Shown here: positions 9,756 to 61,768 of the stretch, in pieces | Layout of the letters: each line of letters begins with the position of its first letter | How positions within the stretch are numbered: the stretch's first letter is position 1 | Assembly (NCBI GenBank): GCA_028864975.1 | Contig: JAGWLG010000001.1 | Location: 96,001-160,000, forward strand | Direction of reading: 5' to 3' | Length of the DNA: 64,000 bases | DNA from: Thermoplasmata archaeon | GTDB lineage: Archaea > Thermoplasmatota > Thermoplasmata > Lutacidiplasmatales > UBA184 | The notes under the pieces: generated by a model | Seen by the model: only the letters and a program-made list of their open reading frames with translations | Databases searched by the model: none | What the model was told of the DNA's origin: nothing | Made by a program: the position numbers and the translations under genes

Positions 9756-10985
9756 CTACTTCCCCGGTCCGTCGAGGACCCGATGGTAGGCGTCGAGCAG
9801 CCCCCGAACGTGGGCCGCGGGTCGGAAGAGCGCGACGTAGCGTTCCCGCCCCCGCCTCCCCCACTCCTCCATCCGCTTTCGGTCCGCGAAGGACTCGACG
9901 ATCGCCTCCGACCAGGCCGCCACGTCGCCCGGCGGGAGCAACCGCCCCTGCTTCCCGTCTTCCAACCAGTCCGGGATGCCTCCCAGGTGGCTGCCCAGGG
10001 CGGGGCGACCGCGCACGAAGGCCTCGAGCCCGACCAGGCCAAAGTTCTCGTAGCCATCCGAGGGGACCGCGAGCAGGTGGATCCTCCGGAAGAAGCGCTC
10101 CTTCTCTTCGCCGTTGACCCATCCAGGGAACTCCACGGCCTGGGCGGTCTCAGGCCCCAGAGCTCGGGCCCGGGCGCGAAGGGCGGGCTCGGCGGACCCT
10201 CTCCCGGCCAGGATGAGACGAAGCCCCGGGACCCGCGCACGAGCCTTGGCGAACGCCTCGAGCAGGGAGAAAGGGCCCTTGTACGTCTCCAGGCGCCCCA
10301 GGAAGCCGATCGTCGGCTCCCCGTTCGGGAGCGCGGGAGGCGCGGTCTCGACCGAGGAGGGTGCGTCGATGAACGGGGCAAGGACCTGCGTCGGACCAAA
10401 GCCGTGGCGCTCCAGGAACTGGGCGGCCGCCCGACTGGGGGCGATGAAGAGCTTCACCCGGGGAGCGACCCGCCGGCGGAAGACCCGGTCCTGAGCCAGC
10501 TTGTAGGGGATCCCCAGGCCGACGTGGCAGCCCGTGAACTGGCAACGGGGCAAGATCCTGCCTTCGCAGAGCCGCCCGTCGGGGAGGACCAGCGTCGCGA
10601 TAGGACAAACGAGCTTCGCGTCGTGGGCGGTCAGGACGGTCGGGACGGAGAGCTTGGAGAGGAGGCGGGCGAGCGGGACGAACCAGCTGTCGAAGTGGTG
10701 AACGTGGACGAGGTCGGGGTGGAACTCCTCGACCACACGGCGGAGCCGGAGCAGCCCGGGGGGCTCTGCCCCAAGGTCCTCGGCGAGGCGCCCGGGTCCC
10801 ATCCGAGCGAGCGGGAGAACCTCCTCCCACGGCTCCGGGCGGTACTCCGAGACCGAGGGGGCGTCCGTGATGCTGACGGTCTTCTGGGGGTGGCCCTCGG
10901 CCTCGAGCGCACGACCGACGGACCGCAGGTAGGACTCGGTCCCTCCCGGGGGCCCTGTCCAGTCGTTGATCCGCAGGACGCGCAT
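9756..10985 (-). CDS. GT4-family glycosyltransferase
   Basis: GGTESY, GFLGRLETYKG and YENFGLVGLEA motifs; HDAKLVCP Cys-rich insert. Confidence 0.9.
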   Translation of the reverse strand: MRVLRINDWTGPPGGTESYLRSVGRALEAEGHPQKTVSITDAPSVSEYRPEPWEEVLPLARMGPGRLAEDLGAEPPGLLRLRRVVEEFHPDLVHVHHFDSWFVPLARLLSKLSVPTVLTAHDAKLVCPIATLVLPDGRLCEGRILPRCQFTGCHVGLGIPYKLAQDRVFRRRVAPRVKLFIAPSRAAAQFLERHGFGPTQVLAPFIDAPSSVETAPPALPNGEPTIGFLGRLETYKGPFSLLEAFAKARARVPGLRLILAGRGSAEPALRARARALGPETAQAVEFPGWVNGEEKERFFRRIHLLAVPSDGYENFGLVGLEAFVRGRPALGSHLGGIPDWLEDGKQGRLLPPGDVAAWSEAIVESFADRKRMEEWGRRGRERYVALFRPAAHVRGLLDAYHRVLDGPGK

Positions 10986-31467: not shown

Positions 31468-31588
31468 AGGGTTCCTCAGCGGACCCGTAGCGGCGACGGG
31501 CTTGAACTCTCGGAGGCAGAGCGCACGCCCCCGTGGGGCTTTATCACAGGATCTGGTGGTGAGGGTTCGCCACCCCTGGGATGCCGGT

Positions 31589-31663
31589 GCGCCGGTGGCT
31601 CAGCCTGGATAGAGCGTTCGGTTCCTAACCGAAACGTCGTGGGTCCGAATCCCACCCGGCGCG
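31589..31663 (+). tRNA. tRNA-Arg (anticodon CCT), 75 nt, no intron, CCA not encoded
   Basis: Cloverleaf: acceptor GCGCCGG/CCGGCGC, D-stem GCTC/GAGC, anticodon stem TTCGG/CCGAA around TT-CCT-AA, T-stem GTGGG/CCCAC. Confidence 0.95.
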
Positions 31664-31700
31664 TAGGCTCCTCTGAGAGGGGGCCGGGAGGGCCCTGGGC

Positions 31701-50133: not shown

Positions 50134-50435
50134 TCACGGTCTTCGTGTGCTCGGGTTGCGGCCTTCACTTCCCGAGCGACGAAATCCGTCGGTGTCCCGA
50201 GTGCGGGGGCACCTTGTCGGCGAAGGAACTGGAAGGACGGGGACGGGTCGCTGCAGCCACCGAGCTCAGCGTTCCCCCTGAAGGCTGGGCCGCTCCGCAC
50301 CGGCTGGTGCTCGCTCAGGTGGATGGTGGGGGGCTGCTCCTGGCCCTCGCTACGTCGGGTACGCCCGAGGTCGGCTCTACGGGTCGGTTGGTTCGGAGAC
50401 CCGAAGGGCAGCTCTCCTGGCAGGGCGACGGGTAG
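50130..50435 (+). CDS. DUF35 zinc-ribbon/OB-fold protein, thiolase partner
   Basis: CSGCG..FP...RCPECG, G.GRV...T; ATGA overlap with the thiolase. Confidence 0.85.
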   Translation: MITVFVCSGCGLHFPSDEIRRCPECGGTLSAKELEGRGRVAAATELSVPPEGWAAPHRLVLAQVDGGGLLLALATSGTPEVGSTGRLVRRPEGQLSWQGDG

Positions 50436-50479: not shown

Positions 50480-50596
50480 CGCGGGGAGGGGGATGTTCCG
50501 CCGCTCGGGCGAGGCCCGACGCGGCTTTTGAACCCCCGAGGTGCAAGCACCACAGGATTAGCAATCCTGCGCCGTACCGGGCTGGGCCATCCCCGC
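50480..50596 (-). tRNA. tRNA-Ser (anticodon GCT) with a 33-nt intron at position 59/60 (intron 50494..50526); mature length 84 nt
   Basis: Acceptor GCGGGGA/TCCCCGC, anticodon stem CAGGA/TCCTG around TT-GCT-AA, long variable arm GGTG/CACC, T-stem GGGGG/CCCCC; removing the intron restores TTCAAAT; BHB geometry present; TTAAAT ~26 nt upstream. Confidence 0.9.
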
Positions 50597-50623
50597 GCGA
50601 GGCGGCCGACCGTCGCCCCGCAT

Positions 50624-51229
50624 TTAAGCGTGTGCTGTGGGCGGCGAGGTCGACGACGCGAACCCCGCGAGCGCCAGGACGTCCAGGTGGTGTCGCCCCA
50701 CCTCTTGGGGGTCCAGGATGAGGGGATTCTTGAACGCGAGCTCGCGCCACGGCGCGGAATGGAGCTGACGGCCCGGTGGCCACTCCCCCCGGTAGATGAA
50801 CGAGAGGTCCCAGTGCGGTCCCTTGCCGACCGGTTCCGGTCGCTCCCACACGTCGGAGATGACCTCGGGTCCTTTGAGGTAGAGCGACTCCAGTCCCAGT
50901 TGTTCCTCCAGGATGAGCTTCGCCGCTTCGCTCGGGGCCTCGTAGAGGAAGAGCTGGCGGGAGGGGAGCATCCACCGGTCCGCGAGGTCCGCGACCCGTT
51001 TCGGGTGCATCCCTCCGATGCGCCTCCAGTCGAAGGAGGCATCGATCCGTCCCATGAGCACCCGGTCCGGGCGGCGCGGTTCGGTCAGGAGGGGGAAGAC
51101 GTTCAGGCAGAGCCCGTCATCCGGGACAGGGATGTAGACGGGGTCGTCGGGCGGAGGAGAGGGTCGGAAACGGCACACCTTGCGCGGCGCGTCCGGGCCC
51201 GGCATGCCCCGGGCGAGCGCCCTCAGCAT
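50624..51229 (-). CDS. Nudix-fold protein with a degenerate Nudix box
   Basis: WMLPSRQLFLYEAPSEAAKLILEEQLG, HWDLSFIY. Confidence 0.6.
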   Translation of the reverse strand: MLRALARGMPGPDAPRKVCRFRPSPPPDDPVYIPVPDDGLCLNVFPLLTEPRRPDRVLMGRIDASFDWRRIGGMHPKRVADLADRWMLPSRQLFLYEAPSEAAKLILEEQLGLESLYLKGPEVISDVWERPEPVGKGPHWDLSFIYRGEWPPGRQLHSAPWRELAFKNPLILDPQEVGRHHLDVLALAGFASSTSPPTAHA

Positions 51230-51267: not shown

Positions 51268-52233
51268 ATGCTCTACGTGCGGAAGGCAGGAGTGGTCGGC
51301 GCGGGAACGATGGGGGCCGCCATCGCGGAGGTCCTGGCGTTCAACGAGATCCCGGTCGTCCTGAAGGAGGTCAACGAGGAGCTCGTCCAGAAGGGTCTCG
51401 CGCGGGTCAAGGGGATCGTCGACGAGCTCGTCGCGTTCCACGAAGGACGCGCGGAGAAGGAGATCGAGCGGATCGAGGAGATGGGGCTGAAGCTCAACGA
51501 CGAGCAGAAGGCCGCCATCCGGGCGAAGCTGAAGCCCAAGGTGGACCGCAAACGCGGGGACGAGGTCCTCGCTCGGGTGAAGGGGACCACAAGCTGGGAC
51601 GAGTTCAAGGACGTCGACCTGGTCGTCGAGGCCGCCTTCGAGAAGGAGTCGGTCAAGAAGGAGGTCTTCGCCGCGCTCGACAAGGCGCTTCCCGACCACG
51701 CGATCATCGCGAGCAACACCTCTTCGCTCTCGATCACCCAGCTGGCGAAGGGGTTGAAGCACTGCGGAAGCACCCTCATCGCCCACTTCTTCAACCCCCC
51801 CTACACGCTTCCGCTCGTCGAGATCGTGGCGGGCGTGGACACGCGTGAGGACGTGGTCAGCGACACCGTGGACTTCTTTCAGGGACTGCGCAACCACCGC
51901 TACCCGATGGTCCCGATCCGCGTCAAGGAGGTCCCGGGGTTCCTCGTGAACCGGCTGCTCATCCCGATGCTGAACGAGGCGTGCTTTGCCCTCGAGGAGG
52001 GGGTCGCTTCCGCCCGCGACATGGACATCGCCCTCAAGGCGGGAGCCGGGAACCCGATGGGACCGCTGGAGCTCGCCGACATGATCGGGCTCGACGTCTG
52101 CCTGGACGTAGCCGAGATCCTCCACCGCGAGTACGGCGACCCCAAGTACCGCCCCGCGATCGCGCTCAAGCGACTGGTCGCAGCGGGCCACCTAGGTCGC
52201 AAGACCGGTCGCGGTTTCTACGAGTACACCTGA
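51268..52233 (+). CDS. hbd: 3-hydroxyacyl-CoA (3-hydroxybutyryl-CoA) dehydrogenase
   Basis: VVGAGTMG, VEAAFE, SNTSSL, HFFNPP, PGFLVNR, PMGPLELADMIGLD, GRKTGRGFY. Confidence 0.92.
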   Translation: MLYVRKAGVVGAGTMGAAIAEVLAFNEIPVVLKEVNEELVQKGLARVKGIVDELVAFHEGRAEKEIERIEEMGLKLNDEQKAAIRAKLKPKVDRKRGDEVLARVKGTTSWDEFKDVDLVVEAAFEKESVKKEVFAALDKALPDHAIIASNTSSLSITQLAKGLKHCGSTLIAHFFNPPYTLPLVEIVAGVDTREDVVSDTVDFFQGLRNHRYPMVPIRVKEVPGFLVNRLLIPMLNEACFALEEGVASARDMDIALKAGAGNPMGPLELADMIGLDVCLDVAEILHREYGDPKYRPAIALKRLVAAGHLGRKTGRGFYEYT

Positions 52234-61306: not shown

Positions 61307-61768
61307 ATGGCGAGGATCGAGAGCCAGGTGGTCATCCGCGCCCCTCTCGACAAGGTCTTCTGGTTCCTCGCGGACGGGGACCACGCGCCCGCCTGGCACC
61401 TCTCGGTACGGGAAGCGCACCACGAGACCGCCCCGCCGATCCGGGTCGGGAGCCGGCTCGTCGTGAAGGCCCACGCGGGCCGCCGGGAGTACGCTTGGAC
61501 CCAGGAAGTGACCGGATGGGAGCCGCCGCACTCCTTCGCGGACCGCATGGTCCCCGGCACCGGACCCTTTCGCCGGTTCGAGGATTGGGGTCGCTTCGAG
61601 CAGGTCCCGGAGGGGGTACGGTTCACCTTCGGGACGGACTATGCCCTGCCCTACGGTCCCCTGGGATGGCTGGTCGACCGCCTCGTCATCGCCCCCCGGG
61701 TCCGTAGGGACCACGGCCGCTCGATGGAAAAGGCGAGGTCGACCCTGGAGGGGGAGGCACGGAAGTGA
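61307..61768 (+). CDS. SRPBCC/START-like (polyketide cyclase family) ligand-binding protein
   Basis: IESQVVIRAPLDKVFWFLAD....P.W. Confidence 0.85.
   Translation: MARIESQVVIRAPLDKVFWFLADGDHAPAWHLSVREAHHETAPPIRVGSRLVVKAHAGRREYAWTQEVTGWEPPHSFADRMVPGTGPFRRFEDWGRFEQVPEGVRFTFGTDYALPYGPLGWLVDRLVIAPRVRRDHGRSMEKARSTLEGEARK

Follow-up and report, generated by a model that had tools for sequence, protein, structure and literature searches.

A tRNA-Ser(GCT) gene with a 33-nt T-loop intron at position 59/60 in a Thermoplasmata archaeon, and its place in a family rich in such introns

The window analysed, a 64,000-nt stretch of archaeal DNA, contains a tRNA-Ser(GCT) gene that bears an intron: this observation is confirmed. 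The gene is very probably functional, producing a tRNA-Ser(GCU) from which a 33-nt intron, located in the T-loop between positions 59 and 60, is removed by a two-unit EndA, the exons being joined by RtcB. The elements of the locus, all on the minus strand, are the following.

50480..50596, minus strand: tRNA-Ser(GCT) gene, intron included, 117 nt; G1 is at 50596 and the discriminator G73 at 50480
50527..50596, minus strand: 5' exon, tRNA positions 1-59, 70 nt, ending in ...GGGGG TTCAAA
50562..50560, minus strand: anticodon GCT, by direct reading, within the arm CAGGA-TTGCTAA-TCCTG
50494..50526, minus strand: BHB intron at T-loop 59/60, 33 nt, from reading, folding, orthologues and covariation
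50480..50493, minus strand: 3' exon, 14 nt, with T60, the 3' strands of the T stem and of the acceptor stem, and G73
50622..50627, minus strand: TATA-box-like TTAAAT, 26-31 nt 5' of G1, a probable archaeal promoter
Exon junction predicted after splicing: GGGGGTTCAAA joined to TCCCCC

Direct reading indicates a class II tRNA, with a long variable arm (GGTGC-TT-GCACC), a 7-bp acceptor stem (GCGGGGA/TCCCCGC) and a 3-bp D stem. The T stem, GGGGG/CCCCC, has 5 bp, and the T-loop consists of TTCAAA, the 33 extra nucleotides and T; CCA is not encoded. The gene lies on the strand opposite to its neighbours: on one side a thiolase/DUF35-like pair, whose end is at 50435, on the other a gene for 3-hydroxyacyl-CoA dehydrogenase (51268..52233). 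An A/T-rich box (TTAAAT, TTAAGG, TTTAAA or TTATAT) is found at the same distance from the gene in all 30 orthologous loci, in flanks that are otherwise GC-rich; TTAAAT is, on this pattern, the probable archaeal promoter of the gene. A scan for bacterial promoters and terminators gave nothing, as expected in an archaeon.

Within the window, the gene is called neither by ARAGORN nor by Rfam at its gathering threshold: both report only an unrelated tRNA-Arg(CCT), an ordinary, intron-free gene at 31588-31664 on the plus strand (61.4 bits), which is the sole tRNA found there by standard tools. When the whole genome is searched, the Rfam tRNA model gives a partial match to the unspliced sequence, limited to its 5' part (24.8 bits); a natural, intron-free orthologue scores 57.6 bits. 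After the intron is cut out in silico, ARAGORN, which does not call the unspliced form, recognizes an 84-nt tRNA-Ser(gct), the length of the spliced product given by the first-pass annotation. The same annotation expected the gene to be missed by default scans: this holds for ARAGORN and Rfam, but not for tRNAscan-SE 2.0, which seeks introns of this kind by default. In the paper describing Lutacidiplasmatales, where introns are not mentioned, tRNAscan-SE 2 in archaeal mode detected tRNAs for all 20 amino acids in the type genome (PMC9287336), a full set suggesting that such interrupted genes are indeed found by that program.

The ends of the insert form a BHB motif. Its outer helix is the T stem itself; its inner helix, GCCGC/GCGGC, has 5 bp and is followed by a 6-bp hairpin. 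In the central helix T54 and T55 pair with A, C56 pairs with G, and A57 faces a G, the partner strand being GGAA near the 3' end of the intron. The two bulges, 3 nt each, are on opposite strands, four positions apart: the 5' one is made of A58, A59 and the first intron A, the 3' one of the last two intron bases, C and A, and of T60. The cut sites, predicted from the second-base rule, would fall after A59 and before T60. As anticipated in the first-pass annotation, cutting after the second base of each bulge restores TTCAAAT. In this genome the boundaries may slide by one base, the first and last intron bases both being A; in most orthologues the consensus is restored by 59/60 alone.

The precursor folds better than expected by chance (z = -3.5; none of 200 shuffled sequences is as good); in the minimum-energy structure produced by RNAfold the central helix is open, as a 7x7 internal loop. 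A strict hBHBh' motif has four Watson-Crick or G-U central pairs: here there are three, plus A57.G. Both flanking helices exceed the minimum of 2 pairs, h being the 5-bp T stem and h' the 5-bp inner helix with its 6-bp hairpin. According to a classifier encoding the rules of Marck and Grosjean, three out of four central pairs make a relaxed motif (bioRxiv 10.64898/2026.10.13.758758). The term "relaxed", as used in the earlier annotation, fits the central helix, with standard pairs at three of its four positions, but not the rest of the motif: its 3-4-3 geometry is intact, as are the two flanking helices. In geometry, position 59/60 may be regarded as matching the canonical 37/38 site, since the T arm and the anticodon arm both consist of a 5-bp stem capped by a 7-nt loop; this mirroring would offer a simple reason for a hot spot at 59/60.

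Conservation was evaluated by a DNA search of 60 relatives, with reading of 30 orthologous loci and of 20 further stretches from the family, the order and the class. The gene is present in 36 out of 36 genomes of the same family. An insert of 29-33 nt is found at the identical site in 26 distinct orthologues, all of them (26 out of 26) with the 3-4-3 geometry; these counts, like those of covariation and of model hits, take in locus L010, from an unpublished genome (G028); the 25 intron-bearing orthologues that remain without it share these features, so that nothing claimed depends on this locus alone. The 27-row alignment (A1) features almost invariant exons and a variable insert. Within the insert, two-sided, compensatory changes occur in 9 of the 10 pairs of the inner helix, and 88.8% of the cells are paired. 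The covariation score of this helix is 0.176, compared to 0.053 for column shuffles (0 out of 500 reach 0.176) and to 0.02-0.045 when the partners are slid by 1-3 columns. The base facing A57 is G in 25 of the 26 orthologues, and U in the remaining one.

Four species of a single genus (g3; genomes G005, G015, G020 and G024, loci L031, L032, L044 and L045) have an intron-free tRNA-Ser(GCT). Their sequence at the junction, GGGGTTCAAATCCCC, is identical to the predicted spliced product. In G010, a fifth species of the same genus, the insert is present. A tRNA-Ser(GCT) gene with a 33-nt BHB intron at 59/60, as proposed in the first-pass annotation, is thus supported by direct reading, folding, intron-free orthologues and covariation.

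The failure of standard finders to call the gene could also be accounted for by a pseudogene, the insert being a scar, such as a mobile-element remnant or integration debris. This is highly improbable: no other Ser(GCT) gene was found, exons are near-invariant in 27 species, the pairing of the insert is kept by compensatory changes and the promoter box is conserved. Furthermore, a search around the gene for att-like copies, flanking direct repeats and integration scars returned nothing but the acceptor stem itself. Hardly any weight can be given, either, to the idea that the mature RNA retains the insert, with a T arm enlarged by it. The T-loop is disrupted by the insert, and its consensus is exactly preserved in the exons; moreover, the insert ends in two 3-nt bulges at EndA spacing in 26 out of 26 orthologues, and sister species function with a precisely excised form. 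A functional gene, with an intron to be spliced out, is the reading followed below.

Outside the family, tRNA-Ser(GCT) genes vary. In most other families of the class they carry no intron. In another family of the same order the insert at 59/60 is of 13 nt in locus L034 (G038; AATTTTTTGAAAA) and of 11 nt in L035 (G040; AATTTTGAAAA): these mini-inserts preserve the 3' bulge and the central helix, TTCA/TGAA, while the inner helix is absent, as in hBH-type motifs. A 37-nt insert at 59/60, with a fully paired central helix, is found in L033 (G050). In L048, grouped with L046 and L047 (L046-L048 correspond to G037, G039 and G042), an insert of about 39 nt is located on the 5' side of the anticodon loop; L049 (G049) and L050 (G059) feature inserts of the canonical 37/38 type.

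The first-pass annotation had proposed to look for another Ser(GCT) gene: none was found in the assembly, composed of 124 contigs and 89.6% complete. By BLAST, the gene matches only itself and Ser(GGA); by an assembly scan for GCT anticodon loops on a 5-bp stem, it is the only hit in a tRNA context. AGC codons are in use: in two neighbouring genes they make up 4 of 9 and 8 of 32 serine codons. The interrupted gene is therefore apparently the sole serine tRNA gene of the genome for AGC/AGU codons. Given the number of contigs and the level of completeness, the sequence absent from the assembly could harbour another Ser(GCT) or EndA gene.

The same type of insert recurs in the genome. At least nine tRNA genes have an insert at 59/60, namely Ser(GCT), Ser(GGA), Asn, Asp, His, Ala(GGC), Gly(TCC), Arg(TCG) and Lys(TTT): of roughly 50 tRNA genes, about one in five is interrupted at this site. 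The eight genes other than Ser(GCT) are located as follows.

G000:C104:121071-121195, plus strand: Ser(GGA)
G000:C100:~10303-10403, minus strand: Asn
G000:C119:~61570-61674, minus strand: Asp
G000:C93:18312-18418, plus strand: His
G000:C97:~90656-90758, minus strand: Ala(GGC)
G000:C50:11378-11478, plus strand: Gly(TCC)
G000:C59:125420-125529, plus strand: Arg(TCG)
G000:C38:9218-9363, plus strand: Lys(TTT)

Their inserts at 59/60 are 28-41 nt long; Lys(TTT) has an insert in the D-loop, too. When spliced in silico, eight of the nine genes, all but Lys, generate tRNAs recognized by ARAGORN, with the expected anticodons. ARAGORN calls most of the eight genes listed only once the insert has been taken out. 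Introns at 59/60 account for most of the anticodons apparently missing from its output. Hand parsing of the nine introns indicates a standard pair for purine 57 in 4 of them and a purine-purine mismatch in 5. The canonical 37/38 intron of tRNA-Met, also parsed by hand, has the same A.G at the same position of the helix.

The genes were searched by a regular-expression scan for T arms with inserts, which produced 69 candidates; only those resembling a tRNA were kept, and Ser(GGA), with one mismatch in the inner helix, was missed. A whole-genome census by ARAGORN with option -i was discarded, most of its 111 calls being false, with kilobase-long "introns". Transposition of introns between tRNA genes was also considered, and set aside, as only weak signals were obtained and scores are inflated by GC-rich hairpins. 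In pairwise alignments of the nine intron cores, compared to shuffled sequences, His gives z = 3.7 with Ser(GGA) and z = 3.1 with Asp, and Ser(GCT) is involved in none of these pairs; at sequence level, this may be a weak hint that T-loop introns spread between the His, Ser(GGA) and Asp genes.

Inserts at other positions were also observed in this genome. An Arg(GCG)-like tRNA with a D-loop insert is found at G000:C32:~210148-210260, minus strand; another Ser(GGA) gene, whose anticodon loop opens with a 19-nt insert, at G000:C83:15780-15883, plus strand; two Leu-type genes, with inserts around the anticodon, at G000:C10:2785-2897 and G000:C81:~10555-10680, both plus strand (genes and loci are matched in the order given). 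Genes for Trp, Pro(TGG) and Leu(TAG) tRNAs were not found in the assembly. Predictions of 89-97 nt made by ARAGORN (Arg gcg, Trp cca, Ser cga and Glu ctc) are apparently false positives, judged on their sequences and on the absence of any match to the Rfam tRNA model; examples are at the following positions.

G000:C2:48495-48583
G000:C15:28224-28320
G000:C46:9688-9784
G000:C48:65208-65300

In a naive tRNA census of this GC-rich genome, such false positives would mask true gaps.

Distribution of the T-loop motif outside this genome was evaluated by a covariance model (R1), describing the T arm and the BHB and trained on the same family. Matches were obtained in all of the 15 sampled family genomes, with 3-12 sites per genome; elsewhere in the class, 0-3 sites per genome are found, and whole families have no match, as in 0 out of 16, 0 out of 12 and 0 out of 10 genomes. 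The model recovered 7 of the 9 training sites from its own genome, as a lossy first-look filter scores few candidates. As the filter is lossy and the training set comes from one family, these counts are lower bounds, biased toward GC-rich relatives. The intron of tRNA-Ser(GCT) is part of a family-wide expansion, in soil Thermoplasmata related to Lutacidiplasmatales.

For the Ser(GCT) gene, the following pathway may be envisaged. Transcription would start from the gene's own TATA-type promoter. In the precursor, as shown by sequence and covariation, the T-loop is blocked: T54, T55, C56 and A57 face the GGAA of the intron, prolonging the T stem into the BHB. The single EndA, of alpha'2 type, would then cut after A59 and before U60, as in established archaeal tRNA splicing. 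By the same established route, RtcB would join the exons into the 84-nt tRNA and circularise the 33-nt intron, CCA being added later.

Candidates for both enzymatic steps are encoded in the genome. RtcB is found at G000:C104:51240-52547 (565 bits). For EndA, whose architecture the first-pass annotation had suggested to identify, a genome profile search with PF01974 detects a single locus, G000:C53, where two domains share a reading frame. The single two-unit protein, P0001, is 374 aa long and contains two PF01974 (catalytic-type) and two PF02778 (N-terminal) domains. Its alignment with the A. fulgidus two-unit enzyme (1r0v, 2gjw) is full-length, covering residues 44-355, and the alignment of its C-terminal unit with M. 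jannaschii EndA (1a79) is almost gap-free. When inspected by eye, the C-terminal unit features FRAYE, SSHARY and GVRKQ, with the catalytic Tyr-His-Lys, and the N-terminal unit has Leu at the Tyr position and Lys/Ser at the His position. On these sequence grounds, the enzyme is of the two-unit alpha'2 (Archaeoglobus) type. Its closest homologues are EndA genes of metagenome-assembled genomes labelled Thermoplasmata archaeon, recovered from soil, peat and mine samples and including AcS1-67, SubAcS10-22 and UBA61; names of the AcS and SubAcS series are also borne by the Lutacidiplasmatales genomes of PMC9287336.

The literature does not guarantee that such an enzyme cleaves the Ser(GCT) precursor, because alpha4 and alpha'2 enzymes require a strict motif (PMC3239211) and the central helix contains A57.G. 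Cleavage of relaxed motifs has been tied to the specific loop, or to its ARMAN-2 counterpart (PMC5829648, PMC3239211). It was considered that the intron is real, and that its removal requires an endonuclease of broadened specificity, acquired or evolved, the alpha'2-looking enzyme being functionally unlike that of A. fulgidus. Such a requirement is unlikely, though it deserves more attention than a pseudogene or a retained insert. The first-pass annotation, too, had supposed a broadened or acquired endonuclease in this lineage; this finds no support in the sole EndA locus, which encodes a two-unit enzyme lacking the specific loop, nor in its architecture, common to relatives with and without the intron.

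Of the features that mark broad-specificity enzymes, none is present: there are no separate alpha and beta genes, no three-unit chain and no A. pernix-type loop. Alignment with the A. pernix alpha subunit (3p1z_B) leaves a gap of about 10 residues in P0001 where the specific loop sits; in the C-terminal domain the aligned range of the ARMAN-2 chain, 4fz2, exceeds that of P0001 by about 5 residues, as judged from the alignment coordinates. In an alignment of 13 EndA sequences no indel separates the intron-rich family from other Thermoplasmata. The two-domain enzyme was found in five relatives: of these, one has a normal intron, one is intron-free, two have mini-inserts and one, from another family, has the 37-nt insert. 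On the other hand, Thermoplasmata EndAs share a strongly conserved segment of the N-terminal unit, PRGG..KTPSKWW (residues ~125-145), for which the A. fulgidus enzyme has no equivalent in the alignment; its retention may speak for some functional difference. In position, the segment seems to correspond to the catalytic-loop region of the active unit, a region that the structural units of Archaeoglobales, Thermoplasmatales and Halobacteriales have lost by deletion (PMC5829648).

The substrates, too, bear on both readings. A broadened enzyme is favoured by the conservation of A57.G in nearly all orthologues, by the purine-purine mismatch in 5 out of 9 T-loop introns of the genome and by the 11-13-nt inserts of the sister family, whose hBH motif is tied to (alpha-beta)2 or epsilon2 enzymes (PMC3239211, PMC5829648). 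The 37/38 intron of tRNA-Met, however, shares the same A.G at the same position, and all the elements of a BHB are present, so that broad specificity is not needed in principle. Removal by the ordinary-looking two-unit EndA remains the preferred reading.

The interest of the case is in the whole family. It may be suggested, tentatively and with more doubt than confidence, that an ordinary-looking alpha'2 EndA processes a surge of T-loop introns, which would number about 9-12 per genome, affect roughly a fifth of the tRNA genes and have a purine-purine mismatch in the central helix in half of the cases, and that in the sister family an enzyme of the same architecture deals with inserts devoid of the inner helix. 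If all of them were spliced, neither subunit architecture nor specific loops would predict which introns are tolerated, and the co-evolution rule, by which non-canonical or relaxed introns occur only with (alpha-beta)2 or epsilon2 enzymes, would need revision. The family offers a natural test of the strictness of two-unit EndA, where one site hosts many introns of graded quality: some with four central pairs, some with three pairs plus A.G and, in the sister family, some with no inner helix. As general finders miss the nine genes, these genomes seem to be without tRNAs for Asn, His, Asp and AGY-serine, and estimates of completeness and of codon capacity are distorted.

Introns at 59/60 were previously described in ARMAN-2 (Ca. 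Micrarchaeum acidiphilum). Its pre-tRNA-Pro(GGG) has introns at 53/54 and 59/60, with strict hBHBh' motifs, its pre-tRNA-Cys(GCA) a 13-nt intron at 59/60, of hBH type; the 59/60 introns are cleaved in vitro by an epsilon2 EndA (PMC3239211). The site in the T-loop, the BHB logic, the use of T-loop bases in the central helix and the shortness of the intron are shared with the gene described here, and the 11-13-nt inserts of the sister family closely resemble the ARMAN-2 tRNA-Cys. The isoacceptor, in contrast, is different, and the Ser(GCT) intron has a full inner helix and a single defect, A.G. The enzymes differ as well, a three-unit epsilon2 in ARMAN-2 and a two-unit alpha'2 without specific loops in this genome.

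In Thermoproteales, other Crenarchaeota and Thaumarchaeota many tRNA genes are interrupted outside 37/38, by non-canonical and multiple BHB introns (PMC8450103), and many are interrupted outside 37/38 here, too; those groups, however, have an (alpha-beta)2 EndA and introns at many sites, as opposed to one site, 59/60, and a two-unit enzyme. A T-arm intron of similar length, 31 nt, occurs in the tRNA-Sec of Lokiarchaeota, according to a work cited in PMC9499178: by this brief description the arm is the same, while phylum and tRNA are different.

Closer relatives are covered by the tRNAscan-SE 2.0 census, which counts 6 non-canonical introns in 3 genomes of Methanomassiliicoccales and 1 in 5 genomes of Thermoplasmatales, and, for all Euryarchaeota, 25 in 6970 tRNA genes (PMC8450103, Table S7). 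The two orders belong to the same class and have the same general type of enzyme, with a load of only ~0.2-2 introns per genome; the table lists neither positions nor isoacceptors. The first-pass annotation had stated that its proposal would lose its point if 59/60 introns were already known in the lineage: non-canonical introns have indeed been counted in Thermoplasmata, but with no positions (PMC8450103). No description of T-loop introns was found in the literature on tRNA introns in Lutacidiplasmatales or Thermoplasmatota. Taken alone, the tRNA-Ser(GCT) gene adds little new, since the type and the position of its intron are already known; what stands out, in comparison with these systems, is the unusually high load of such introns in this lineage.
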